NCBI GenBank assembly: GCA_050178385.1 | Contig: JBFXGD010000084.1 | Location: forward strand, 1 to 14,343 | Source of the DNA: Calditrichaceae bacterium | GTDB taxonomy: Bacteria; Calditrichota; Calditrichia; Calditrichales; JBFXGD01 | DNA length: 14,343 nucleotides | Direction: 5' to 3' | Shown: positions 1 to 12,705 of the stretch, in pieces | Layout of the letters: each line of letters opens with the position of its first letter | Position numbering within the stretch: position 1 is the stretch's first letter | Position numbers and translations under genes: made by a program | Notes under the pieces: generated by a model | Told to the model about the DNA's origin: nothing | What the model saw: the letters and a program-made list of their open reading frames with translations, nothing else | Databases searched by the model: none

Positions 1-438
1 GCGTCCCTGCTTGGAATCAAGATTGATAAGCGCATCCAGACTGGAGCGCAGCATGCTTTTTGCTATTTCACCCATTTCTCTGAAATTAAATTCAAAATCA
101 ACGGACGGATAGTCGTGCAGATCAATCGCGCGCTGGGCGATGTTCGAAGCAAGATCTCCCACTCTTTCCAGTTCACTGTTTATCTTGAGCACGGCGACCA
201 CATAGCGAAGATCGATGGCGACCGGCTGGTGCAAAGCCAGAATTTTCAGACATTCCTCTTCCACTTCAACTTCCATATCGTCTATTTTTGTATCATTCCT
301 GATAATTTCCCTGGCCAGTTCCGCATCATCACTGTCCAGAGCCAGAACCGCGTTCTGCACAGTCTCTTCAACCATGGCGCCAAGTGTGAGAATTTTTTTC
401 TTCAAATTCTCAATGGCCTTGTGTAAATGGATCGTCAT
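1..438 (-). CDS. phoU: Phosphate signalling/transport regulator PhoU (N-terminal 146 codons; continues off the left edge)
   Basis: Not in the ORF track; translated by hand from ATG at 438: MTIHLHKAIENLKKKILTLGAMVEETVQNAVLALDSDDAELAREIIRNDTKIDDMEVEVEEECLKILALHQPVAIDLRYVVAVLKINSELERVGDLASNIAQRA... Has the PhoU motifs QPVAxDLR and LERVGD. AAGGGAG RBS; lies directly after pstB. Confidence 0.96.
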   Translation of the reverse strand, partial: MTIHLHKAIENLKKKILTLGAMVEETVQNAVLALDSDDAELAREIIRNDTKIDDMEVEVEEECLKILALHQPVAIDLRYVVAVLKINSELERVGDLASNIAQRAIDLHDYPSVDFEFNFREMGEIAKSMLRSSLDALINLDSKQGR

Positions 439-455
439 AATAATGCTCCCTTAAA

Positions 456-1274
456 TCAACCAAATCGACCGGTAATATAATTTTCTGTCTGTTTTTCTTT
501 TGGGTTTGTGAATAGCTGATCGGTCACTCCGTATTCAACAATATGCCCTTCGTAGAAGAACGCAGTATAATCAGATATACGCGCCGCCTGCTGCATATTG
601 TGCGTTACGATAGTAATGGTATATTTTTCCCTGAGTGATAAAATCAGTTCTTCAATTTTTGCTGTCGCCACAGGATCGATGGCCGATGTCGGCTCATCCA
701 TCAAAAGAACTTCCGGTTCAACCGCGATGGCTCTGGCGATGCAAAGCCGCTGCTGCTGTCCTCCGGAAAGAGCCGTTCCCGGACTGCTTAACTTATCCTT
801 GACCTCTTTCCATAAGGCGGCCTGCTGAAGCGCCGCTTCCACTTTGGAAGCAATCTCCCCTTTACTGAGTTTGTAATGCAGACGCAATCCGTAGGCAACG
901 TTATCAAACACTGTCATCGGAAACGGAGTCGGTTTCTGGAAAATCATCCCCACGCGTTTACGAAGATCGATTAGGTCCTGATCCTCCGACAAAATATTCA
1001 CCCCGTCAAGCAGAACTTCACCTTCGGCGCGCTGATCCCTGTACAGCTCATATATCCTGTTATAAACACGCAGATGGGTTGATTTTCCGCATCCGGATGG
1101 TCCAATCACCGCCGTCACTTTTCCCGGCTTTATTTCTATGGTGTTATTAAAAAGCGCCTGGTGATTGCCATAGAAAAAATTCAGGTTCTTAACGGAGATA
1201 TGACCCCTCATTTTTTCAGGGACGGTCTCTGTCAGTTTTGGCATCTGTTTTACGGTATCGGCTATCTGGTTCAA
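456..1274 (-). CDS. pstB: Phosphate ABC transporter ATP-binding protein
   Basis: Walker A GPSGCGKS, signature [14 protein letters not shown], Walker [13 protein letters not shown], PstB-typical FQKPTPFPM and C-terminal YITGRFG. TTG start with a purine-rich RBS; a slightly downstream ATG (MPKL) is an alternative start. Confidence 0.97.
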
Positions 1275-1275
1275 A

Positions 1276-2121
1276 CTATTGCTTCCTTTCCTTTAACACA
1301 AATCTCGTCAGTAACGTCACAAATAAAACCGCGAGGGTTATCAGCAAAGACGCTCCCCAGGCCATCTGCTGCCAGTCGGGATAAGGCGACATGGCGTAAT
1401 TAAATATCGTGACCGTCAAATTCGCGGTTGAATCGTTTAGCATACCCGGCCAGTAGGGACTGTTTAAGGCGGTGAATAAAAGCGGGGCGGTCTCACCGCT
1501 GACACGGGCAATGGCTAATAACACGCCAGTGATCATACCGGTTTTGGCTCCGCGAAAAACGATGGTCAGTGTAACTTTCCATCTAGGTGAACCGAGCGCC
1601 AGAGCGGATTCCCTTAAAGCGTTCGGAACCATTTGCAGCATATCTTCAGTGGTTCTCGCCACCACGGGAAGCATAATGACCGCCAGCGCGACGCTTCCTG
1701 AATAACCGGAAAAATGTCCCACCGGCACAACCAAAATGGTGTAAACAAAAACTCCAATAATAATTGAGGGAGTACCCATCAGAATATTGGAAAAAAATCT
1801 CACCCATTCCGAAAATTTTGACTGGTATCCGAACTCGCTTAAATAGATACCCGCCAGAAGCCCCATCGGCACACCAAGAATGGTGGCCAGGAAGGTAATC
1901 AGCAAGGTCCCGATCATCGCGTTGGCCAATCCCCCGCCTTCCATCCCCGGCGGAGTGGGCAATTCAGTAAAAAACGGGATATTTATCGCGCTGAAACCCC
2001 TTATTATGATCTCAAAGATAATCCAGACAAGGATAAACAATCCAAGGACCGCGGAAATCCCAGACAGAATGCTGACGAGAGCATTCTTAAATTTCCGGTA
2101 TCTGTGGGAGCGTCCGTTCAT
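1276..2121 (-). CDS. pstA: Phosphate ABC transporter permease PstA
   Basis: Multiple TM helices, [13 protein letters not shown]-like loop [26 protein letters not shown]. Start placed at ATG 2121 (ATGA overlap with the pstC stop) rather than the track start at 2157. Confidence 0.95.
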
Positions 2122-3065
2122 TGTACCCCCATGGATTTTTTGACTTTCCGCAGCCATAGCTGAGAAATCACCTGGATGATAAACGTGATCAGAAAAAGCA
2201 CCAATCCCAATTCAATCAGAGAACTCATATACATGGGCTCCGACGCCTCTGCAAATTCATTCGCCAGCGTTGCGGTGATACTGTTGGCCGGCGCGAACAG
2301 GGATGGTGAAATATGATGGCTGTTCCCGATAACAAATGTGACCGCCATGGTCTCACCGATAGCTCTTCCAAGCCCCAGAAAGGTCGCGCCGATGATTCCC
2401 TGAATTCCGTACCTGATGGTCACCTTTTTTGTCACTTCCCAGGTCGTCGATCCCATTCCATAGGATGATTCCTTCACAACAGCAGGGACCATGACAAATA
2501 CATCCCTTATTACGGAACTGATAAAAGGCAGGATCATAATCGCCAGGATAATCCCGGCGGTGAACATCCCGATTCCTATTGGAGGGCCTTCCAGAAATAT
2601 ATTATTTCCAAAAACAGTCTTCAGAGCGGGATGAATATATTTTGAAATAAAGGGCGCGAATACAAACAGCCCCCACATGCCGTATATGATACTGGGAATG
2701 GCAGCGAGCAATTCGATCGCGGCTCCGAAAAACTTACTGACCGCCGGGTGTGCGAGTTCAACCAGAAACAGCGCGATGGCAATGCTTAAGGGAACGGCGA
2801 TGATCATCGCGATCAGTGTTGAGACAATTGTTCCGTAAATACTGCTCGCTGCACCGAATATACCTTTAACGGGATCCCAGACGTTGGTGTACAGAAATCC
2901 CGCGCCAAACTTTTGAATGGATGGCCATGAGTTTACAAGAAGCTGCAAAAATATGGCCGCCATTATCAGCAGAATAAACGCAGCGCCGATGATCGTGATG
3001 ACCTTAAAGATGGCATCTGTCCTGTTTTGAGTGCTTCTTTCCTGAATGAGTTTGCTAAAATCCAT
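2118..3065 (-). CDS. pstC: Phosphate ABC transporter permease PstC
   Basis: ELLAAIPSIIYGMWGLF, GLGRAIGETMAVTFVIGN and LANEFAEA motifs; located between pstS and pstA. Confidence 0.96.
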   Translation of the reverse strand: MDFSKLIQERSTQNRTDAIFKVITIIGAAFILLIMAAIFLQLLVNSWPSIQKFGAGFLYTNVWDPVKGIFGAASSIYGTIVSTLIAMIIAVPLSIAIALFLVELAHPAVSKFFGAAIELLAAIPSIIYGMWGLFVFAPFISKYIHPALKTVFGNNIFLEGPPIGIGMFTAGIILAIMILPFISSVIRDVFVMVPAVVKESSYGMGSTTWEVTKKVTIRYGIQGIIGATFLGLGRAIGETMAVTFVIGNSHHISPSLFAPANSITATLANEFAEASEPMYMSSLIELGLVLFLITFIIQVISQLWLRKVKKSMGVQ

Positions 3066-3083
3066 TATTTCCTGTCATTCCTT

Positions 3084-3119
3084 AAAAAGGAAAGAGGGCG
3101 CATTAAACGCCTCTCTTCC
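3084..3119 (-). terminator. Imperfect stem-loop with U-tract between pstS and pstC (partial terminator or mRNA stabiliser)
   Basis: Minus strand reads GGAAGAGAGGCG-TTTAATG-CGCCCTCTTTCC-TTTTT, an 11-bp stem with two single-base bulges followed by T5. Confidence 0.6.
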
Positions 3120-3145
3120 GGTCAGTTTAAGTATTCCCCCGGCCG

Positions 3146-4225
3146 TTACTGCCAGATACTTTTACCTTCGGATTTAATTTCACTCTTCCATGTTTCCTCT
3201 ACGAGCGCGATGACATTCTCGGGTATCGGGACATAGTGCAGGTTTACCGCCAGACTCTGACCGTGGCGGTAACTCCACTCAAAGAATTCGAGTACCCGTT
3301 TCGCGGTCGTCGGGCTGCTTTGTTCCTTATGCATCAAAATGAACGACGCTCCGGTTATGGGCCATGACGTTTCACCGGGCTGATCGGTCAGAACCAGGTA
3401 ATATCCCGGGGCGTTCTGCCAATCGGCATTTGCGGCGGCCGCCTGAAATGATTCAATGGTTGGGCCGACATAATTTCCCGCTTTATTTTGAAGAAGTACA
3501 TAGTTCATTTTATTCTGTAACGCATAGGCATATTCAACATAACCAATGGCGCCATCCGTTTTTTTAACAAAAGCAGCGACACCTTCATTGCCTTTACCCG
3601 CCAGGCCCGCGGCATCCGGCCATGCCGGAGCTTTCCCGAATCCGACTTTCTCTTCCCATTCCTTTGATACCTTTGCAAGATAGTTTGTAAAAATCCATGT
3701 AGTACCTGAACCATCGGCCCGGCGTACAGTGGTGATCGCTTTATCCGGCAGCGTCATGTCGGGATTGTTTTGCTTAATTTGAGGATCATTCCATTTTTTA
3801 ATTTTTCCAAGATAGATATCGGCCAGATTCTGAGCGGTAACTTTTAGAGTTCCTTCAGCGATTCCCGGCACATTAATCACCGGTACAACACCGCCGATGA
3901 CCATCGGAAACTGAATCAGACCGCCTTCATTAAGTTCATCGACCTGTAGCGGCGCGTCAGACGCCCCAAAATCAACGGTATTGGCTTTGATCTGCGCGAT
4001 ACCGCCGCCGGATCCGATGGACTGATAATTGAGCCTGGCGCCATATAATTTTTCGTATTTATAAGCCCACTGAGAATAGATCGGATACGGGAATGATGCT
4101 CCGGCTCCGTTAATAACAGCGGTTTCCGCTTTTTCTTCAGATGTTTTGGATGTGCAGTTTGTCAGTGAAAAGGACATAAACACAAGTATAAGCAAAGTTG
4201 ATGTAAGGCTTAAAAATTTCTTCAT
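3146..4225 (-). CDS. pstS: Phosphate ABC transporter substrate-binding protein, probably a lipoprotein
   Basis: GAGASFPYP, YQSIGSGGG, DFGASDAPL, RADGSGTT and GAIGYVEYAY motifs. Signal peptide ends in lipobox-like LTN-C. AGGAG RBS at 4232-4236. Confidence 0.97.
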   Translation of the reverse strand: MKKFLSLTSTLLILVFMSFSLTNCTSKTSEEKAETAVINGAGASFPYPIYSQWAYKYEKLYGARLNYQSIGSGGGIAQIKANTVDFGASDAPLQVDELNEGGLIQFPMVIGGVVPVINVPGIAEGTLKVTAQNLADIYLGKIKKWNDPQIKQNNPDMTLPDKAITTVRRADGSGTTWIFTNYLAKVSKEWEEKVGFGKAPAWPDAAGLAGKGNEGVAAFVKKTDGAIGYVEYAYALQNKMNYVLLQNKAGNYVGPTIESFQAAAANADWQNAPGYYLVLTDQPGETSWPITGASFILMHKEQSSPTTAKRVLEFFEWSYRHGQSLAVNLHYVPIPENVIALVEETWKSEIKSEGKSIWQ

Positions 4226-4273
4226 GAGATACTCCTATAATTAGATTTTATAAGCCTGATATTAGCTTGCGAT

Positions 4274-4301
4274 TATTAGATTATTGTTAGGATTGTGTTA
4301 A
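4274..4301 (-). promoter_or_regulatory. Putative Pho box (PhoB/PhoP-type direct repeats) upstream of pstS
   Basis: Minus strand TTAACA-caatc-CTAACA-ataat-CTAATA: three hexamers at an exact 11-bp period, about 50-75 bp upstream of the pstS ATG. Resembles the TT(A/T)ACA-N5 PhoP box. Confidence 0.7.
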
Positions 4302-4427
4302 TTTTGAGATTCGTAGCGAAATTTAATATAAATGAATGCGGATGTATAAGGAAAGATGAAAAAAGATTTAAATGTGTAAACTCTACTTTTTATCCAGATG
4401 TTCTAAGGGTGAAGTATCATTACCGGG

Positions 4428-5741
4428 TCAGACCGGTTCCTTCATTTCCCCTCCAAACTTGATTCCTATTTGCTTCATCAGCTTAAAGGGCGGTTCGCCC
4501 CCGGCAAAAATAAAAACATAAGAGTTGGATATCTCAGTCTCTTTCCCGCCCTCCTTTATAATGACAGTCGTTTCATCAATACGGGTAATTTCGGAGTTAA
4601 ATTTAACATTGATTTTCCCGCTCTCCGTCATTTGCTGAATACGTTCCTCATTGCGCTTTTTTATCCTGAAAAATTTATCTTTTCTGTAGGATAAGGTGAC
4701 CGTGTTGCCTTCCTGCCTGGCCAATCCGATTGCCGCCTCAATGGCGCTGTCACCTCCGCCTATAACAAGCAAATTTTCTTTTGTGTAGGCTTCCGCGTCG
4801 ATTAATTTATACATAACCTTTGGAAGATTTTCACCGGGGATATTTAATTTTCGTGGTGTGCCTCTTCTCCCGAGGGCGAGTATCACATAACGTGAACGGT
4901 AATTGTTGCCGGATGTTTTAATCTTAAAACCGCTGCCGTTTTTTTCGATGTGTTCGAGCTTCTCCTTTATATGAAGATTCAGATCAAATTTTGTTTCTAT
5001 CTCTTCCCAAATATCCAGAAGCTCTTCCTTGGTGTACTCAGGATGTTTTAACCAGCCGTACATGGGTAGTTCCACCGGTTTGGTCATCACTAATTTTTTA
5101 CGTGGATAATGGAGTATCGTCCCGCCCGCGCCCTGCTGATCGATAACAAGAAAGGATAAATTGTGTTTTTTAGCGGTCAGTGCCGCGCTCAGTCCGGCCG
5201 GTCCCGCGCCAACAATTATTAAGTCATGCGTGGAAGCATCCTGTCCGGGATGATTCACTTTTGACGCGATATGTTCGGCCACTTTTCGTCCCTGATTAAT
5301 CGCGTTTCTTATCAGAGCCAGGCCACCAAGCTCGCCGGCGATGTAAAGCCCTTCTATATTTGTTTCATTGAATTCGGTCATCACAGGGATGTCGTCACGG
5401 GATTTGATATCTCCAAGACCAACCTTGATCGCGCCAACCGGGCAGGCTTCCTCACACAAGCCATGACCAACACATTTCAGACCGTTTATGATGGTCGCTT
5501 TGCCGCCGACGATACCCAGGACACTGCCTTCGGGACAGGCCGCGACACAAGATCCGCAGCCGATACATTGCCACTGGTCAATCTGCGGATACTGGGCGAC
5601 CGGTTTATCGGCCCCCAGGCGTACCGCCTCCTTTTTTCGGTACAAATCTTTCTTTTGCGTCTTCCTGAATCGGAGATAATATGGTAAGAATATTGCCAGA
5701 CCAACGACAAGAGTAATAGTATATATAAAGATTGTTTCCAT
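4428..5741 (-). CDS. Membrane-anchored dicluster ferredoxin / FAD-dependent NAD(P)H oxidoreductase (TrxR/FNR-like fold, no CxxC)
   Basis: N-terminal TM helix followed by basic residues; CIGCGSCVAACP and CVGHGLCEEACP Fe-S motifs; FAD motif IIVGAGPAG; LALGRRG; NADPH-type motif VIGGGDSA followed by SYRKDKFFR. Confidence 0.88.
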   Translation of the reverse strand: METIFIYTITLVVGLAIFLPYYLRFRKTQKKDLYRKKEAVRLGADKPVAQYPQIDQWQCIGCGSCVAACPEGSVLGIVGGKATIINGLKCVGHGLCEEACPVGAIKVGLGDIKSRDDIPVMTEFNETNIEGLYIAGELGGLALIRNAINQGRKVAEHIASKVNHPGQDASTHDLIIVGAGPAGLSAALTAKKHNLSFLVIDQQGAGGTILHYPRKKLVMTKPVELPMYGWLKHPEYTKEELLDIWEEIETKFDLNLHIKEKLEHIEKNGSGFKIKTSGNNYRSRYVILALGRRGTPRKLNIPGENLPKVMYKLIDAEAYTKENLLVIGGGDSAIEAAIGLARQEGNTVTLSYRKDKFFRIKKRNEERIQQMTESGKINVKFNSEITRIDETTVIIKEGGKETEISNSYVFIFAGGEPPFKLMKQIGIKFGGEMKEPV

Positions 5742-5795
5742 TTATTGAATTTCCTGAGATGGACAGTTTAAAACGACCGCTTTGTTTTATCGATC

Positions 5796-7403
5796 TTAAA
5801 ACCTGAAACCGGCTTCGGCGGTTATACGATGTCCTTTTGTATCATCTCCCCAATCATACTCATACTGGGAAGATATAAAAAAATGTCTGCTTAATTCTAT
5901 TTGTCCGTTGAATCTGAACCATTGATTTAGGTAATTGTTGTCAGTTGCTTTCAGATTGTAATAATAATTCCCGTATGTGATACCAAAAATATGTCCGTCA
6001 TTGAATGTTTTACTAATCCGGATTGAGGGATTATACCCGGCTGTATAATAATTTGAAAAACCGGACACACTAAACTGAAGCAGCATCCCCTGACGGAAAA
6101 AATTCATCTTATTCAGTCCGGCCGAATATGAGTATGTGTTTTCTGAGTCATTCTCCCGGTTTCGGATGCCGAATCCGGCAGATAACCGGTAATCATCTAA
6201 AAGTTTGATATAAATATTTGTTCTTATCCCCTGTCTGAAAGCGTCGTCAAAAAGACTGTCCGCCATAGTGCGCAGGTCATAGGTATAATAATTTTTGCGA
6301 TTGTCATAGGATAAAGAGGCATTCACGCCGTCCGAGAACCGGTACCGGCCCGATAAATATAATCCCGACAATGAGATATTTTCGTTTGTACGGTCTTTGC
6401 GCCAGTCGCGATTCAGATCAATTTCGGCGCTTTGATAGAAGGACCATTTTTTCCCGGAAACATAATTATTCTGCAGGTAAAGGAATTCCCGGCTGACGGT
6501 GCTTCCATGATATTCACCCGCCAGGGCCAGTGTCGATTCAAGTCGCTCTGCGCCGTAATCTCCGTTCAGATAAGTGAGATACGCGCCGTATTTTTGAATA
6601 GATGTTTGAAAATCCGAATACTGCCATTCCGGTTGAGTTCCGGCGAATACACCGAGACTAAGTTGTTTTAGCATATTGTACTGCAGAAGCAGACCGTCAA
6701 TATAACCCACACCACTGAATTTATTTGAGATGATGCGTCCTAATTTATAATTGAAAAGGGCAGTTTGATCATCGTAGGAAAAAGACAGTTCATAAATCCG
6801 GTTTCGCCATTCATCAGACGGTACATGACTGTTGTAGCTTCTTTCTCTTTTATCGTAACGGGTTCTGGTTTTAAGAATAAAATTGTAGCTTTTACCCCAG
6901 AGTTGTCGCGCCTTCAAATTTACGCGGAATGTCGGTTGGCTGAAGTTCAGTCCGGCATCGGTCAAATCTTCAAAATGGTACAATTGCATCGAAATGCTGC
7001 CGTGTACATTCGATTTGGAGCGTTTGATGCTTTTGGCTGGCTTTTCCGACCAGACGCGCTGCCGGGATTGCAGTGAATCTTTTGATACTTCTGATGTTTC
7101 GCTCAGGACCGGCAGCTTAACGATGTCTCCGGGTTTTACATCCGCGGATGATTCAATCACCCTGCATGAAGATGAATGGCCTGCCACAAATACGATTTCC
7201 ATTTCCGCGATAATTTTGTCCCCCCTGCTGACAGACAAACGCATTCCTGCGGAAAGACCGTCTGTCTCACCGGCATCAATATAAACATGGTCGGCAGACA
7301 GATATTTTACCTTTGCGGTCCGCTCTCCGGTTTGGGAAAACCCCATCCCGATCATCAGCAATATGACGATCAATATTAAATATTTCATACATTCAACTTT
7401 CAT
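5796..7403 (-). CDS. Outer-membrane beta-barrel (porin-like) protein with a small N-terminal beta domain
   Basis: Sec signal peptide (alternative start ATG 7388, MKYLIL); about 400 aa of alternating amphipathic, aromatic-rich strands; C-terminal beta-signal AEAGFRF ending in Phe; adjacent to multiheme cytochromes. Confidence 0.85.
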   Translation of the reverse strand: MKVECMKYLILIVILLMIGMGFSQTGERTAKVKYLSADHVYIDAGETDGLSAGMRLSVSRGDKIIAEMEIVFVAGHSSSCRVIESSADVKPGDIVKLPVLSETSEVSKDSLQSRQRVWSEKPAKSIKRSKSNVHGSISMQLYHFEDLTDAGLNFSQPTFRVNLKARQLWGKSYNFILKTRTRYDKRERSYNSHVPSDEWRNRIYELSFSYDDQTALFNYKLGRIISNKFSGVGYIDGLLLQYNMLKQLSLGVFAGTQPEWQYSDFQTSIQKYGAYLTYLNGDYGAERLESTLALAGEYHGSTVSREFLYLQNNYVSGKKWSFYQSAEIDLNRDWRKDRTNENISLSGLYLSGRYRFSDGVNASLSYDNRKNYYTYDLRTMADSLFDDAFRQGIRTNIYIKLLDDYRLSAGFGIRNRENDSENTYSYSAGLNKMNFFRQGMLLQFSVSGFSNYYTAGYNPSIRISKTFNDGHIFGITYGNYYYNLKATDNNYLNQWFRFNGQIELSRHFFISSQYEYDWGDDTKGHRITAEAGFRF

Positions 7404-7411
7404 ACAATTTC

Positions 7412-9100
7412 TTAATCCTCAGCACGGCCCGTCGGATGACAATTATAACAGGCGTTGCTTTCATAGGCATAATTCGTCACTTCTTTGTGTTTATCATTCA
7501 GATCGGCCTGATTGCTGTGCTCGTGACAGGTGATGCATTCAAAATGGGTATAATCATTGGCACTAACATGACAATCCGCGCAAGTATTCCATTCATCCTG
7601 ATGTTTCCCGCTATAAATGGGGAAATACTGGCCGTCATGATCCCAGTTTGCAGGCTGCCACGCGCTCATCGAATGACAATCTTCACAGGTTGACGGGAAT
7701 TGCGCCGCGGCATGATTTGGATCCGTTGTACTGTTATAAGCGCTCTCATGGCAAGGGAAGCAATCTGTCGGTGTATTTGTATAACCGGTGGAATGACATT
7801 CCGCGCAATTTACACTCACATGCGCACCAACCAACGGAAAATCGGTCTGATTGTGATCAAATGAAGAAGGCGTCCAGGCCGTTGTTGAATGGCAGACCGT
7901 GCAATCATGATCAAAATTAGCGGCAACATGGTCCGGATCGTTGACACTATTAAAATCGTTTTCATGGCAAGAGAAGCAATCTGTAGGGGTATTTGCATAA
8001 CCGGTGGAATGGCAATCTGAGCAATTAACGGTCGTATGTGCCCCGGTCAATGGGAAATTCGTCTGATTATGATCAAATGAAGAAGGTGTCCAGGCCGTTG
8101 TTGAATGACAGACCGTGCAGTCATGATCAAAATTAGCGGCGAGATGATCAGGATCTTTTACACCATTAAAATCCGCTTCGTGACAGGAAAAACAGTCAGT
8201 GGGCAACATGGAATACTGTCCGTCAATGTGACAGTCTGTGCAGGCCACATTTTTATGAGCGCCGGTTAATGGAAATCCGCTTGAGGCATGATCGAAATAA
8301 GCCGGAATCCACGCGGACTCTGTATGACAAATGCTGCACTCGGTGGAAAATTGTCCCTGAGTATGATCCGGCTCTCTCGTTGCATAGTAATCCGTTTCAT
8401 GACAGGCAAAACAGGTATTATCTATCCCGCTGAACTGTGTCTGATGGCAGCTGTTACAATCCGCTTTCAGGTGCGCTCCCCGCAGAGGAAATTCAGATGT
8501 ATGCTGATAATTTGTCCGTTCCCATGTGGATGAATTGAGCAAATGGCACTCGTCACACCGGTCGTCAAACTGAGCTTTTCGATGATCCGGATTCAGGGTT
8601 GTTTTGAAGAGCTCGCCATGACAATTTTCACATTCAATCGGCGTATTGGAAAATTCATTTCGCTGTTCGGTAAAATGACACGCCCTGCAATCCACTATGG
8701 AGTGAACCCCGACCAGCGGGAACCGGGTCTGATTATGCTGCTGAAAAAGCTCCTGACGGTTTTCCCAGGACTGCGGAGTATGACAGTTCTCGCAGTCAGC
8801 GCCGAATTCGTCTTTATGAATATCCTGATGACAATCGGCACAGGCGTGCCCTATGTGCGCGAATACCGGATTTTCATGACAACTCCCGCAATCGGCGAAG
8901 CGGTGCGCTCCGGTCAAGGGATATCCCGTTTGATTATGATCAAAATCTTTCCCGGGTTGAACATCAAACCAATCCGATGTGCTATGACAGGTTGTACAAT
9001 CTAATTTGATGTCCCCGTGGGGATTTTTCAGAACTTCCTGACCGTAAACATACGGCAAAATCAGTAAAGTGGTCATGACTGTAATGATGAATGCTTTCAT
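7412..9100 (-). CDS. Exported multiheme cytochrome c with 22 CxxCH motifs (acidic)
   Basis: 22 CxxCH counted by hand; repeating FDHxxTxFPLxGAH-x4-CxxCH tri-heme module; Sec signal MKAFIITVMTTLLILPYVYG|Q with no lipobox. ATG at 9100 preferred over the track's GTG at 9106. Confidence 0.95.
   Translation of the reverse strand: MKAFIITVMTTLLILPYVYGQEVLKNPHGDIKLDCTTCHSTSDWFDVQPGKDFDHNQTGYPLTGAHRFADCGSCHENPVFAHIGHACADCHQDIHKDEFGADCENCHTPQSWENRQELFQQHNQTRFPLVGVHSIVDCRACHFTEQRNEFSNTPIECENCHGELFKTTLNPDHRKAQFDDRCDECHLLNSSTWERTNYQHTSEFPLRGAHLKADCNSCHQTQFSGIDNTCFACHETDYYATREPDHTQGQFSTECSICHTESAWIPAYFDHASSGFPLTGAHKNVACTDCHIDGQYSMLPTDCFSCHEADFNGVKDPDHLAANFDHDCTVCHSTTAWTPSSFDHNQTNFPLTGAHTTVNCSDCHSTGYANTPTDCFSCHENDFNSVNDPDHVAANFDHDCTVCHSTTAWTPSSFDHNQTDFPLVGAHVSVNCAECHSTGYTNTPTDCFPCHESAYNSTTDPNHAAAQFPSTCEDCHSMSAWQPANWDHDGQYFPIYSGKHQDEWNTCADCHVSANDYTHFECITCHEHSNQADLNDKHKEVTNYAYESNACYNCHPTGRAED
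7763..8194 (-). repeat. Intragenic tandem duplication, 2 x 216 bp (72-aa tri-heme module)
   Basis: Units 8194-7979 and 7978-7763 are 61/72 identical in protein. The DNA cores 7845-7924 and 8061-8140 are 76/80 identical. Confidence 0.93.
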
Positions 9101-9108
9101 AGACACTC

Positions 9109-10788
9109 TCAGTTATTACTAATGATATTGGCGTGACAGGATTTGCATTCTGCCGACATTGGTTTGTAAACAGTGAAATTAGTCTCATTTTTAACCGCTT
9201 TTTTATGGCATTGTTCGCATCTTACCATCCGATGCGCCCCATCCAGTTTAAAAACGGAATCACGGTTATGATCAAATTTTTCAGCAAGCCAGTCCTTTGA
9301 TGTATGACAACGTTCACACCGGATTCCCGTGGTCACATCAGATTCCTGAAACTGTCCCAGATGAATATCCGTGTGACAGTCTTTACAAAGCGGAGTCATC
9401 CCGAGAAATTGAAGCCGCTCCAGCTCTGTGCCTTTCCGGATGGGCTGATGGCAGTCCCTGCATTTCGCGGAAAGGTGACGCCCTTCAAGCGGAAATTTTG
9501 TGGCCTGATGATCAAAATTAACCTGTGTCCAGCTATTGACGCTGTGACAATGTTCACACCCGTCCATATTTGTAAGAGCTGATTTTTTACTTAGAAAATT
9601 ATCAACTTCACCCTTATGGGGGTCTTTGTGACACTCTAAGCATCTGGTTGACGGATAAGCAAACCGGGTTTTGAGTTTTCCAGCGGAGAACACGCTTTTT
9701 TCATGGCAGGCCACACAAGGCACCGCCAGATGACTGCCCGTCAAAGGATAATCGGTTAAGCGATGCTGCTCGATGGTGAATTTTGAAGGGCTGAAACCAT
9801 TGACGGTATGGCATTCTTCACATGCCCCCTTCATCACTCTGCCGGCAAAATGGCCGTCATGGTAATCACTGTGACAATCGCTGCATTTTTGAAAACGAGC
9901 AATACGGACAGAGCGCCCGGGAAGATGACACTGGCTGCATTGAACCGCCGCATGTTTTCCGAGAAGAGGATAAGCAGTTTTATTATGATCAAATCCGGCA
10001 AGTTCTGTGCTTTTCCACCCGCCTGTATTATGACATTGCGCGCAGTTCTGCCCGAATTTATTCTGATGAATATCCGCGTGACAGTCCGTACAGGTATTAA
10101 ATGTCAACGGAGTGAATTTCAAATAATCGGGATCATTCGGGTACGCGTTATCTTTGATTGTCACGTGACATTTATCGCAGGCAGTTTGCCGGTGGAGTCC
10201 TGTTAATTTATATTTTGTTTTGTCGTGGTCAAACAGCGTCGCCGGTTTCCATGATTCCATCCCGTGGCATTTGACACATGTTTCTTTGATTTGTCCACGG
10301 TGCTCGTCATGGTGACAACTTACACAATCCCGGTTTAGTCCAAGAAATGTCCGGTTGAGATCTTTGCCCTTGCTTTTTAATTTTCCGGGATTTTTAATAT
10401 GGTTTTCCCGGTGACACTCTCCGCACTTCAAAGCGGCATGTTTCCCATCAAGCGAGTAACCGGTTAATGAATGATCGAAATTCTCCTCTCCGCCTTTCCA
10501 GTAAATCAGATCGTACTCCCGTCCCTGATGCTCAATATGACAATTTTCGCATCTGCGGTAATCTTTTCCGGCATGCAGTCCTTCCCCGTTTGAGATTCTT
10601 TCTTTTAACAGTACATGGCAGTTAAGACAATAATCATCCGAAAGCTGTTGACCAATTTCATGACATTGCGTGCAATTCATCACTCCCTCCAGATGGGCAT
10701 GTGATTTATGCAAATCTCCCGGTGATAACTGAGCGAAAACCGACGTCGCCAATATGAGCGAAAACCAGAAATATAAGATTCGATACAT
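9109..10788 (-). CDS. Periplasmic multiheme cytochrome c with 20 CxxCH motifs (basic)
   Basis: 20 CxxCH counted by hand; same FDHxxTx(F/Y)xLxGxH module; N-terminal SPGDLHKSHAHLEG; Sec signal ending SVFA|Q with no lipobox. Confidence 0.95.
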   Translation of the reverse strand: MYRILYFWFSLILATSVFAQLSPGDLHKSHAHLEGVMNCTQCHEIGQQLSDDYCLNCHVLLKERISNGEGLHAGKDYRRCENCHIEHQGREYDLIYWKGGEENFDHSLTGYSLDGKHAALKCGECHRENHIKNPGKLKSKGKDLNRTFLGLNRDCVSCHHDEHRGQIKETCVKCHGMESWKPATLFDHDKTKYKLTGLHRQTACDKCHVTIKDNAYPNDPDYLKFTPLTFNTCTDCHADIHQNKFGQNCAQCHNTGGWKSTELAGFDHNKTAYPLLGKHAAVQCSQCHLPGRSVRIARFQKCSDCHSDYHDGHFAGRVMKGACEECHTVNGFSPSKFTIEQHRLTDYPLTGSHLAVPCVACHEKSVFSAGKLKTRFAYPSTRCLECHKDPHKGEVDNFLSKKSALTNMDGCEHCHSVNSWTQVNFDHQATKFPLEGRHLSAKCRDCHQPIRKGTELERLQFLGMTPLCKDCHTDIHLGQFQESDVTTGIRCERCHTSKDWLAEKFDHNRDSVFKLDGAHRMVRCEQCHKKAVKNETNFTVYKPMSAECKSCHANIISNN

Positions 10789-10826: not shown

Positions 10827-11741
10827 TCAGAAGATCCACCGATAGCCGAGAACAACCGTTACAATGATATGAATAATCATAATCAGGTACATAATGATCG
10901 CGAATGGTTTATGAAACACATGCCAGTGATGAAACAATTTATGTGTGCTGTTCCAAAGAGTCAAACGATGTCTGATCATCGCTTTCTGCCGGGCAGCCTT
11001 TAATATGGGATTCAGCTGATCGCCGGGAATATTAAATTTTTTACGAACCGCACGCTTGATATAAAATGAGCGGACTAACCGGATCACATCACCAGTTATC
11101 ATTGAAAACAATGTTCCGATTGCAGTCTTATGTGACTTTTCCCTGCCGATGATCATAGTTTCAATCTCATCGAGAGCCACATCTTCAAGCCAAAATTCAT
11201 TTCTCAGCCGCTCCGTCAACTGCCGATCCATTTCTTCCGCTTCGCTCAGCGTCAGCTCATGTCCTCTGATATTTCTCGGGATTTGCAGATACAGATAACG
11301 TCCTACGATGCCGCTCAGAGACACCGCGATCATCGACCAGAAACTGACAGCCACAAGGCCGTTCAGCTTGAACGTGGTATGAAGGATAATAAACAAGGGT
11401 CCCATTAATCCAAAATAGATATGTATATCAAGCCAGCGGCTAAGCGAGCCCCACTTTGAAAATGTCCTGAATCGTTTGCGGACGGAATAGAGCAGCATTA
11501 ATATCATCATTGACGAGCCAAGGATACCGAAACCGTGACCGAGTAATCCGCCCGGTTTCAGAATACGGTAGTCCGCATGACGCGGTCTGTCCGTATAAGA
11601 CAATAGATAGTAATTTAATCCGTCCATTAAATAATAAATAACGACCGCAAAAGTTGCGATATAAAGAAACGCGAGAAAAATTCTGAAGGATTTGCCCTGA
11701 GTGGTATTTTTCTTAGTCTGAATTGTCATCCGCCTGCTCAT
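10827..11741 (-). CDS. Inner-membrane di-heme cytochrome b-like protein (ferric reductase-like transmembrane domain)
   Basis: About 5 TM helices; two intramembrane His pairs H107-x13-H121 (WLDIHIYFGLMGPLFIILH) and H277-x13-H291 (WHVFHKPFAIIMYLIMIIH); YSVRKR cytoplasmic loop. Alternative start ATG 11729. Confidence 0.82.
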   Translation of the reverse strand: MSRRMTIQTKKNTTQGKSFRIFLAFLYIATFAVVIYYLMDGLNYYLLSYTDRPRHADYRILKPGGLLGHGFGILGSSMMILMLLYSVRKRFRTFSKWGSLSRWLDIHIYFGLMGPLFIILHTTFKLNGLVAVSFWSMIAVSLSGIVGRYLYLQIPRNIRGHELTLSEAEEMDRQLTERLRNEFWLEDVALDEIETMIIGREKSHKTAIGTLFSMITGDVIRLVRSFYIKRAVRKKFNIPGDQLNPILKAARQKAMIRHRLTLWNSTHKLFHHWHVFHKPFAIIMYLIMIIHIIVTVVLGYRWIF

Positions 11742-12039: not shown

Positions 12040-12705
12040 TTACTTCCTGTTCTGTAGTGCGTCCGATGCCATTTTTCCCCATTTTGAATCGGGAGCGGTC
12101 TCTGCGGCGAGTTTAAAATAATTTTCGCTTTCTTCCTTTTTATCCTCTTTTTCAAAAGCCTGCGCGTAATGATAATAGACCAGCGCTTTTAGCTCACGCG
12201 GTCCTGATTGAAATTTTTCACCTTCGATAATGTATTGGAAGTCAATAAAACAAAATTTCCGGCGTCCCAGAAAGCCAGGCAGATTTAAGCTGTTCATTGC
12301 CCTGACGAGACGAACGTTATGATCATCAGGAGCCATGGCGACCGCACTGTCCATTATTGCCGTGCCCTTTTTGACATGTTTGATTTTATTCCACGGCATA
12401 GCGGAATCCCTTCCGTACATGGAATAAACGCTTCCAAGATAGGCCTTAGCTAAGGCATTTGAAGGATTGATATCCAGAATATCTTTCAGATACTGTTCGC
12501 TTTTTTTTACAGCCTCCTTATCACCATCCGCGCCCTGGTCATGATAGATGACGGCTAATTTCAGCATGGTCTCAGAATCACCCGGATTATTTTTTAAAAC
12601 AGCTTTCAAAGAATCTTCTTTTGTTTGACTGTAACCGGGATGATTAAACAAAACAAGAATACTGATACTCATAAATAGAATTACTGATAGTTTAGACTTA
12701 TACAT
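12040..12705 (-). CDS. Secreted TPR-like alpha-helical protein of unknown function
   Basis: Signal peptide ending PGYS|Q; TPR-type patterns LKNNPGDSETMLKLAVIY, INPSNALAKAYLGSVY, AVAMAPDD and YYHYAQAF...YFKLAAETAPDS. Confidence 0.8.
   Translation of the reverse strand: MYKSKLSVILFMSISILVLFNHPGYSQTKEDSLKAVLKNNPGDSETMLKLAVIYHDQGADGDKEAVKKSEQYLKDILDINPSNALAKAYLGSVYSMYGRDSAMPWNKIKHVKKGTAIMDSAVAMAPDDHNVRLVRAMNSLNLPGFLGRRKFCFIDFQYIIEGEKFQSGPRELKALVYYHYAQAFEKEDKKEESENYFKLAAETAPDSKWGKMASDALQNRK

Follow-up and report, generated by a model that had tools for sequence, protein, structure and literature searches.

A circularly permuted flavoprotein encoded in a cytochrome operon

The window analyzed here (14,343 nucleotides; positions 1 to 14,343 of contig JBFXGD010000084.1, assembly GCA_050178385.1, from a Calditrichaceae bacterium) carries an operon for multiheme cytochromes that also encodes a 437-aa iron-sulfur flavoprotein, here called P0001. 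We consider it likely that P0001 is a natural circular permutant of a YpdA/thioredoxin reductase (TrxR)-type flavoprotein and the probable NAD(P)H-side input to a multiheme cytochrome wire encoded by a PCC3-type operon; the circular permutation itself is real. A canonical TrxR-type chain begins with the flavin adenine dinucleotide (FAD) Rossmann part, continues with the NAD(P)H domain and a return strand, and closes with the "GD" strand and a final helix that complete the FAD site. In P0001, the last strand-helix unit of this canonical chain (aa 113-165) comes first, followed by a 6-residue linker to the first Rossmann strand, and the chain ends at the point of entry into the GD unit of a canonical enzyme. 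Its new N-terminus bears a two-cluster ferredoxin domain and a membrane helix. The parts of the open reading frame (ORF) are as follows.

4428..5741, minus strand: whole ORF of P0001, 437 aa, with membrane helix, ferredoxin domain, relocated FAD element, and flavoprotein core; stop codon at 4428-4430
5667..5741, minus strand: N-terminal membrane helix (aa ~1-22), then the basic stretch RFRKTQKKDLYRKK (hydropathy scan; helix 2-41 in the model)
5412..5585, minus strand: two-cluster ferredoxin domain, aa 53-110, C59xxC62xxC65xxxC69P and C90xxH93xxC96xxxC100P (Pfam and cysteine positions)
5439-5474, minus strand: second Fe-S motif CxxHxxCxxxCP, aa 90-101, with His93 at 5463-5465
5247..5405, minus strand: relocated C-terminal FAD-binding element, aa 113-165, TxxxxGxYxAGE, with strand 132-134 and helix 144-161
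5229..5246, minus strand: linker, aa 166-171, between the relocated helix and the first Rossmann strand (model secondary structure; alignment gaps fall here)
4446..5228, minus strand: YpdA/TrxR-like core, aa 172-432, without cysteine (Pfam, PDB, and structure matches)
5193-5210, minus strand: FAD Rossmann motif GAGPAG, aa 178-183
4743-4760, minus strand: NAD(P)H Rossmann motif GGGDSA, aa 328-333

The initial annotation, made from the sequence of this stretch and covering positions 4428-5390 (I118 to the stop codon), had placed the segment P119 to I158, which reads PVMTEFNETNIEGLYIAGELGGLALIRNAINQGRKVAEHI, before the first Rossmann motif, and had noted that the protein ends soon after the strand YVFIFAGGEPP. 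Retranslation of 4428-5741 on the minus strand confirmed both points: the Rossmann motif DLIIVGAGPAG spans D173 to G183, and the strand spans Y408 to P418 of a chain whose last residue is V437. The core returns to the FAD domain at FIFAGGEPP, 19 residues separate that point from the C-terminus, and the core ends 5 residues before the stop. Pfam matches were obtained to Pyr_redox_3 (aa 175-428; E value of 7e-53) and, above the cutoff of 27 bits, to Fer4_7 (aa 58-104; 42.8 bits). As in TrxB, both the FAD GxGxxG motif (G178AGPAG183) and the NAD(P)H GxGxxA motif (G328GGDSA333) are present. The collinear order of TrxB, with its C-terminal GD strand and helix, was not found; the GD-like element lies at aa 113-165.

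All seven cysteines of P0001 (residues 59, 62, 65, 69, 90, 96, and 100) fall within the ferredoxin domain, and there is none in aa 101-437. The count is seven rather than the full eight of two CxxCxxCxxxCP motifs, a histidine taking the place of the second cysteine in the second motif. This histidine, His93, was kept in 209 of the 217 homologues in which the second motif could be scored, and the resulting CxxHxxCxxxCP pattern suggests either a His-ligated [4Fe-4S] cluster or a [3Fe-4S] cluster. By the positive-inside rule, the remainder of the protein after the N-terminal helix is probably cytoplasmic.

Homology of the relocated segment to the C-terminal FAD element

Searched by itself against 177,635 distinct PDB sequences, the relocated segment (aa 112-172, 61 residues) matched residues ~313-352 of glutathione reductases, which constitute their second FAD motif, with an E value of 3.6e-4. 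Hidden Markov models (HMMs) of the segment and of the core, built from a 58-sequence family alignment (A2), were run over all ORFs of the window's genome. In P0001 itself the segment (113-164) preceded the core (170-431). In a 473-aa paralogue, the core (12-294) was followed by the segment (303-344; segment HMM E value of 1e-5), and the same succession was seen in a 642-aa ORF (core 149-313, segment 410-450; E value of 0.0019).

The swapped order was also evident in BLASTP comparisons with canonical-order relatives from other genomes. With L045 (from a Steroidobacteraceae metagenome-assembled genome [MAG]), the core aligned as q174-431 to s6-270 (E value of 2e-40) and the segment as q118-165 to s276-323 (E value of 1.9e-7). 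Core and segment matches in swapped order were likewise obtained with L053, from a Rubrimonas MAG (E values of 1e-29 and 9e-7), and with the further canonical-order relatives L046 (3e-33 and 2.7e-4), L051 (7e-28 and 1e-3), and L049 (1e-38 and 6e-3); L047 is another relative of this kind. The two non-collinear matches to canonical relatives that the initial annotation anticipated were thus obtained by three routes (PDB search, own-genome HMMs, and BLASTP). On sequence comparison, aa 112-172 resemble the C-terminal FAD (GD) element more closely than chance would explain.

Pfam coverage told the same story from the other end of the chain. Canonical L045 and L046 extended to position 305 of 305 in Pyr_redox_3, and P0001 and a permuted relative, L035, ended at 280 and 281, respectively; in Pyr_redox_2, L045 and L046 reached 291/291 or 287/291, and P0001 ended at 251/291. 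A whole-protein phmmer search of the PDB returned Bdr/YpdA (7a7b_A; q174-429 to residues 6-264 of 328; E value of 5.8e-31). The cut point can be located closely. Canonical-order relatives have the segment about 5 residues or less behind the core (in L045, s270 to s276), and in the model of P0001 the chain end (...GIKFGGEMKEPV) and the segment start (...DIPVM) are in contact. The old N- and C-termini of the canonical protein are now joined by aa 166-171 of P0001.

Predicted packing and covariation

An AlphaFold2 model of P0001, computed from alignment A2, had a mean predicted local distance difference test score (pLDDT) of 89.2 and a predicted template modeling score of 0.77, and showed strand 132-134 and helix 144-161 directly before the first Rossmann strand (172-177). 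The best Foldseek match of this model was Bdr/YpdA (E value of 1.3e-23). With VIA-align, the best match was 7a76_D (Z score of 23.0; root mean square deviation of 4.2 Å; 261 residues aligned, model 170..432 to chain 2..277 of 324), and all 50 matches began at model residues 166-171 and ended near residue 255-277 of chains that are 305-345 residues long. Solved TrxR-like chains covered only model residues 170..433, and their last ~50 residues had no partner. A search over 48,161 representative chains gave the same picture of a collinear match to the core only, among the matches listed. Chains whose match started at model residues 70-123 (1ps9, 9n5v, 8oh5, 3k30, 4ylf, and 8acs) had 227-263 aligned residues, no more than the others. 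Among the matches listed, no solved TrxR-like chain aligned collinearly over its full length, and no solved chain with the permuted order occurred in the two lists of 50 structure matches.

The packing of the segment was predicted with ESMFold2 in a split-chain design, in which the core (169-437), FAD, and the segment (112-168) were given as separate chains. The score was 0.86 (0.85, 0.86, and 0.86 in the individual runs), compared with 0.03 for the best of three controls; this mark was attained by 116 out of 157 solved complexes, as against 2 out of 215 mismatched pairs, counts that apply roughly to the present design. The runs agreed in at least 94% of contacts, with a partner pLDDT of at least 83. 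In the predicted complex, strand 131-135 lies next to core strand 284-292, and helix 147-156 rests on the first Rossmann helix (180-193); the contacts with the least predicted error were those of 131-135 with 285-288 and of 147-155 with 181-189, and residues 114-120 touched 417-432. In the glutathione reductase/TrxR fold, the GD strand lies beside the "ATG" strand and the last helix lies on the first Rossmann helix. Judged against the fold as generally known, the predicted segment-core contacts are those of the canonical arrangement.

Covariation was evaluated by mean-field direct-coupling analysis of 285 family sequences (effective number of sequences, 223.5). Twelve segment-by-core pairs ranked in the top 59 of 68,657 coupling pairs. 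Both residues belonged to the predicted interface lists in 8 of the top 10 and 10 of the top 12 segment-by-core couplings (chance expectation, 0.144; binomial P values of 6.5e-6 and 2e-7, respectively), and the coupled pair 155-186 was also among the least-error contacts of the split-chain prediction. The segment was not placed outside the FAD domain: the split-chain model and the covariation both located aa 119-158 on the core, and the moved piece is predicted to pack as an integral part of the FAD domain. Non-collinear matches, predicted packing, and covariation together support the proposal of the initial annotation that the C-terminal FAD element has moved to the N-terminus. The annotation further proposed that this move would set the ferredoxin domain beside the flavin.

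Conservation of the permuted order

The order of segment and core was examined in 270 proteins, comprising P0001, 119 other near homologues, and the 150 best representatives of clusters at 50% identity. The segment preceded the core in 268 of them and followed it in none; the remaining 2 were core-only fragments. No second copy of the moved element was present at its old place in any of the 270. The tail after the core had a median length of 8 aa; it was no longer than 30 residues in 189 of 259 proteins and exceeded 100 residues in 67, which were fusions. All of these 150 best clusters, two fragments counted in, belonged to P0001's family, which spans at least a dozen phyla (taxonomy as given in record titles). 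The nearest relatives of P0001 came from Caldithrix/Calditrichaceae-type genomes. Cultured organisms with a homologue include Caldithrix abyssi (P0097), Ideonella sp. YS5 (L014), and Thermobacterium salinum (L015).

Residues of the moved element were strongly conserved among 310 aligned family members (G136 in 307, L143 in 302, and A147 in 295). The motif was initially described as having GE rather than GD, and this holds well beyond the window: position 137 is E in 298 members, D in 8, S in 1, and a gap in 3. GE is a rule of P0001's family, and a second permuted type, fused to a NapH-like domain and described below, keeps GD.

Within the window's phylum, P0001 had a match at an E value of ≤1e-60 in 53 of 86 genomes and 36 of 55 genera; one of these genomes is a second member of the window's genus, and its copy is 91% identical. 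Six further matches in the phylum (G048, G049, G061, G063, G067, and G085) were of the NapH-fused type. In two phylum homologues (G018:C395:723-2021 and G001:C10:43096-44388), a single in-frame TAA falls within the match, which may reflect either sequencing errors or broken copies.

Relatives in both orders and the origin of the permutation

A scan of one genome per species yielded 80 loci, which were sorted with the segment and core HMMs. The window's order (helix, ferredoxin, segment, core) was found at 32 loci, assigned by record titles to Calditrichota, Acidobacteriota, Gemmatimonadota, Planctomycetota, Bacteroidota, Ignavibacteriota, Nitrospirota, Myxococcota, several Pseudomonadota, and others. 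One more locus, L028, was labeled segment-core solely on account of a masked ferredoxin region and falls inside the window's type. At 8 loci the segment was detected behind the core, as in the canonical order, most strongly in L045 and L053 (segment HMM E values of 1e-14 and 1e-12). The YpdA/TrxR-like loci without a segment match numbered 26. The 8 loci that could not be classified (L017, L029, L031, L037, L038, L044, L069, and L081; short, masked, or ambiguous core) were omitted from the tree.

A second permuted type was found at 5 loci, in which the segment at the very N-terminus is followed by the core and a multihelix membrane domain.

L035:9935-12208, second permuted type
L036:672-2813, second permuted type
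L039:1028-3763, second permuted type
L041:1275-3473, second permuted type
L042:9920-11455, second permuted type

L035 matches NapH-type Fer4_5, and four of the five loci end in ferredoxin. These proteins are collinear with P0001 (L035, q119-433 to s23-338, E value of 8e-63; L036, E value of 3.5e-55) and have in common with it the permutation and the cut point. They differ from P0001 in having no ferredoxin before the segment, in keeping GD, and in carrying the Fer4_5 membrane domain with a C-terminal 2×[4Fe-4S] ferredoxin.

An IQ-TREE "quick" tree of the core was built from 73 rows (72 loci and the window). It split 27 YpdA/TrxR-like rows from 46 others with a Shimodaira-Hasegawa-like approximate likelihood ratio test (SH-aLRT) value of 95. 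Every one of the 39 permuted rows fell on the 46-row side, along with 7 canonical-order rows (L045, L053, L047, L049, L050, L052, and L051). In the best tree, the 39 permuted rows, the NapH-fused type among them, stood on one side of a branch with an SH-aLRT value of 67.8, and the backbone among the 46 rows was unsettled. A single origin of the permutation fits the common cut point, and the tree favors neither one origin nor several.

The canonical-order relatives L045 and L053 thus lie on the same side of the tree as the permuted forms, and they differ from P0001 in having the GD element after the core and their Fe-S domains at the C-terminus, behind cNMP (cyclic nucleotide)-binding domains. 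Each (L045:573-2972 and L053:3236-5662, both plus strand) comprises core, GD element, two cNMP-binding domains, and polyferredoxin, L053 having been read by eye. They give the impression of an input module of the same kind under cNMP regulation.

Genomic context of the flavoprotein

The P0001 gene is the fifth gene of the operon and the last of a tight codirectional block, with gaps of 38, 2, 8, and 54 bases. The four preceding genes are as follows.

10827..11741, minus strand: inner-membrane protein, 304 aa, HX13H motifs at aa 107-121 and 277-291 (motif scan)
9109..10788, minus strand: multiheme cytochrome c, 559 aa, 20 CxxCH motifs
7412..9106, minus strand: multiheme cytochrome c, 564 aa, 22 CxxCH motifs
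5796..7403, minus strand: 535-aa protein with a signal-like N-terminus, ending in ...GFRF, between the cytochromes and the flavoprotein

The 304-aa protein matched Pfam Ferric_reduct below the cutoff (18.3 bits versus 28; E value of 0.0026) and is the probable diheme b-type partner of the flavoprotein. The multiheme cytochromes matched Cytochrome_C7 and MtrC/MtrF-type domains. The 535-aa protein had no Pfam match at an E value of ≤0.01; its signal-like start and C-terminal Phe make it the probable outer-membrane barrel of the conduit.

Gene fusions link P0001's family to these neighbors. Among the 270 homologues, 43 (including P0127, P0168, and P0215, with 40 others) were fused to a homologue of the 304-aa membrane protein, 39 at the C-terminus and 4 at the N-terminus, and in 39 of the 43 the membrane protein came directly after the core. 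A further natural fusion is the 743-aa ORF of L008. These fusions argue for physical coupling of the membrane protein with the flavoprotein. Fusions to multiheme cytochromes like those of the window were seen in 7 of the 270 (P0122, P0123, P0186, P0199, and P0212 among the cytochrome-related fusions). Where a flavoprotein of the cytoplasm is joined to a cytochrome of the periplasm in a single polypeptide, the chain would have to cross the membrane between the two.

In the gene neighborhoods, the membrane protein was found at 27 of the 32 other window-type loci, a cytochrome with at least four hemes at 27, and both at 24; neither the membrane protein nor cytochromes occurred at any of the 26 YpdA-like loci. 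The window's subtype thus tracks with the cytochrome gene cluster. The initial annotation had proposed testing whether permuted homologues do so; such tracking held for this subtype, and the association is not exclusive to the permuted order (see below).

A proposed route for electrons and its relation to known systems

The window's operon matches the predicted porin-cytochrome cluster PCC3, which comprises an outer-membrane protein, two large multiheme cytochromes, and an inner-membrane protein of ~300 aa, according to the available text of its descriptions. The inner-membrane protein is defined there by two HX13H motifs in membrane helices, and in the published model electrons are exchanged between it and quinones (He et al. 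2017, PMC5566968); the same cluster is treated in Hoover et al. 2023 (PMC10734462). The window's operon has the corresponding 304-aa protein with two HX13H motifs and the cytochromes with 20 and 22 CxxCH motifs, and, as a possible porin, the 535-aa ORF described above. In the text available for the two papers, "flavoprotein" and "FAD" occur 0 times each in PMC5566968 and 0 and 1 times, respectively, in PMC10734462.

In the route that we propose, NAD(P)H would reduce the FAD of P0001 on the cytoplasmic face of the membrane, and the electrons would pass singly via the two Fe-S clusters to two b-type hemes of the 304-aa membrane protein. From there, they would move to the 20- and 22-heme periplasmic and extracellular cytochromes and the outer-membrane barrel, and on to the cell surface, a route that would bypass quinones. 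The conserved basic motif SYRK, located past the second Rossmann strand, would point to NADPH as the donor. The second, His-containing cluster may be the exit cluster toward the membrane hemes.

Several characterized systems have features of this arrangement. YpdA/Bdr (TIGR04018; 7A76, 7A7B, and 7APR) provides the best sequence and fold match to aa 170-433, with the same Rossmann motifs. P0001 differs from it in its permuted chain, in its additional membrane helix, ferredoxin domain, and cytochrome operon, and in lacking cysteine in the flavoprotein part, and it lies across the SH-aLRT 95 split from the YpdA/TrxR-like rows. NOX/FRE proteins would be alike in plan, in that their membrane domain, which has two bis-His hemes, receives electrons from a flavin dehydrogenase that uses NAD(P)H on the cytoplasmic side. 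Fused forms are seen in 43 of the 270 homologues. The NOX dehydrogenase has a plant-type FNR fold, whereas P0001 has the TrxR/YpdA fold and two Fe-S clusters, and its membrane partner scores below the Ferric_reduct cutoff. NfnB/GltD-type proteins (4YLF_B, 9N5V_A, and 8OH5_C) resemble P0001 in that an Fe-S domain at the N-terminus precedes the FAD and NAD(P)H domains. As structural neighbors they are weaker (Z scores of 13.4-15.6; 227-232 residues aligned), and they differ in their canonical order, their different Fe-S domain, and their membership in soluble bifurcating complexes.

Our literature search found no report of a permuted TrxR/YpdA-type flavoprotein or of a permutation in a flavoprotein with two dinucleotide domains, and the terms PCC3, flavoprotein, FAD, and ferric reductase are absent from a 2026 FEMS review of iron oxidation proteins (PMC13741234). 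No model specific to the architecture of P0001 was among the Pfam and NCBIfam matches. P0001's family is large and widespread, yet annotation pipelines name it thioredoxin reductase or YpdA, names that are wrong on chemistry because the flavoprotein part has no cysteine. The PCC3 papers, in the text available, assume that the diheme inner-membrane protein communicates with quinones; an NAD(P)H-dependent Fe-S flavoprotein, often fused to that protein, offers a testable alternative, in which cytoplasmic reducing power would be discharged directly to the cell surface. Such direct discharge bears on "fermentative" metal reduction and on the redox balance of uncultured sediment and soil phyla.

In the flavoprotein, both chain ends meet at one spot, one end leading to the ferredoxin domain and membrane helix and the other to the membrane protein, so this spot probably faces the membrane. 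A wider scenario, which we offer tentatively and would not ourselves bet on, is that one ancient permutation of a YpdA-like protein put both ends at a single membrane-facing hairpin and so created a plug-in cytoplasmic dehydrogenase, open to tethering to or fusion with membrane redox proteins. It might then have spread as two undescribed classes of quinone-independent NAD(P)H:membrane oxidoreductases, one comprising the diheme PCC3-type partners with giant cytochrome wires, exemplified by the window, and the other the NapH-type polyferredoxin fusions, with the conserved His-ligated or 3Fe second cluster as the exit to the hemes.

Counterevidence and alternative explanations

A number of points weigh against the view of P0001 as a permuted flavoprotein feeding the cytochromes. 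In the phmmer search, a second stretch aligned to Bdr (q123-139 to 278-294) was not significant alone (i-Evalue of 2e+03). The three-dimensional equivalence of the segment to the GD element rests on predicted contacts and the canonical fold as generally known. The ESMFold2 result may reflect memory of solved TrxR-like structures and would then show likeness rather than an independent fact, and its calibration holds roughly because the run used a custom alignment and a riding ligand, unlike the calibration set. Couplings of the ferredoxin domain to the rest of the protein were weak (best rank, 34 of 68,657 pairs), and its best non-local pairs (88-427, 84-205, and 78-341) ranked 38-55 and were unclustered, giving no firm placement of the domain. 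We inferred the FAD and Fe-S content, nucleotide preference, electron direction, and partner contacts, the electron transfer steps being drawn from composition, fusions, and synteny. Five of the 32 window-type loci had no membrane protein in the flanking DNA examined, some of them being cut by contig ends. None of the 5 NapH-fused permuted loci had a diheme protein or cytochromes nearby, and canonical L045 and L053 (2 of 8 canonical-order loci) adjoin a homologue of the membrane protein, at 11 and 2 bases. The link between permutation and function is therefore loose, and association with the diheme protein does not hinge on the permuted order itself.

The permuted order could in principle be false. 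An assembly or gene-calling artifact (a frameshift, a chimeric contig, or a wrong start) might be suspected in a window taken from a 320-contig draft genome, an explanation to which we attach next to no credence: the reading frame runs without a break to a clean TGA stop, an AT-rich spacer of ~200 bp lies before the next gene, and the same order recurs in 268 of 270 homologues from many sources and in the phylum-wide matches, the 91%-identical copy included. It is also highly improbable that there was no permutation and that aa 113-165 are a linker or ferredoxin extension resembling the GD element by chance, in a C-terminally truncated ("atrophied") YpdA-like protein. The weak match of the segment to Bdr itself would suit that explanation, glycine-rich strand-helix motifs do recur in Rossmann proteins, and aa 112-172 also gave subthreshold matches (score of 2.8-2.9) to the first GxGxxG of glutathione reductase. 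The segment nevertheless matches the post-core element of canonical relatives, always directly after the core (BLASTP E values of 1.9e-7 to 6e-3, with HMM matches to L045 and L053 at 1e-14 and 1e-12); its G136, E137, and L143 are kept in 307, 298, and 302 of 310 members, and predicted contacts and couplings put it on the FAD domain.

Other alternatives accept the fold or the permutation and differ on function. P0001 could be an ordinary disulfide reductase for low-molecular-weight thiols or thioredoxin that has gained a ferredoxin domain, as the JGI names "thioredoxin reductase (NADPH)" and "putative YpdA family bacillithiol system oxidoreductase" imply and as the best family and structure matches (YpdA/Bdr and TrxR) might suggest. 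TrxB has a redox-active CxxC in its NADPH domain, and YpdA has a conserved active-site Cys near its N-terminus; P0001, which has no cysteine after residue 101, has neither. Its scores fall far below the curated cutoffs for TIGR04018 (YpdA/Bdr; 195.7 bits versus 339.9) and TIGR01292 (TrxB; 106.2 bits versus 343.45), and it is membrane anchored and encoded in a cytochrome operon. Thioredoxin or bacillithiol reductase identity was ruled out by the missing cysteine and these scores, and we regard a disulfide reductase of any such ordinary kind as extremely improbable. Electrons might also flow inward through a truly permuted protein, P0001 being the end of an uptake pathway that reduces NAD(P)+ from extracellular Fe(II) or a cathode, or a reversible redox valve. 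PCC3 was first proposed in neutrophilic Fe(II) oxidizers and is modeled, in the text available, as an inward conduit (PMC5566968; PMC10734462). Genomes of Rubrivivax, Ideonella, Hyphomicrobium, and Nitrospirota contain relatives of P0001, and electron transfer along flavin and Fe-S chains is reversible in principle. Against inward flow, NAD(P)+ reduction from heme-level potentials would be uphill, with no energy-coupling part visible in the operon, and the nearest relatives are from the Caldithrix/Calditrichaceae group, which is known for anaerobic heterotrophs. On balance, we think inward flow unlikely and prefer outward transfer from NAD(P)H through P0001 to the cytochromes.

Neighboring genes and additional domains

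Some homologues carry domains other than those of the window's protein. P0227 and P0259 have N-terminal FHA domains together with cytochrome domains, and P0147 and P0157 have long C-terminal TPR regions; a 221-aa TPR protein is encoded just upstream of the window's operon (12040-12705, minus strand). These FHA and TPR parts may point to a regulatory or assembly link. Scanning of positions 4150-5900 for promoters and terminators identified no minus-strand terminator after the P0001 gene, and the sole minus-strand promoter-like site, at 4301-4272, lies before a pstS-like gene; counts in both cases were near the shuffled expectation. Directly downstream of P0001, a phosphate ABC transporter block (456-4225, minus strand) comprises this pstS-like binding protein, two permeases, and an ATPase. 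The binding protein matched PBP_like_2 (E value of 1.7e-39), and the permeases and ATPase were read from their translations alone.

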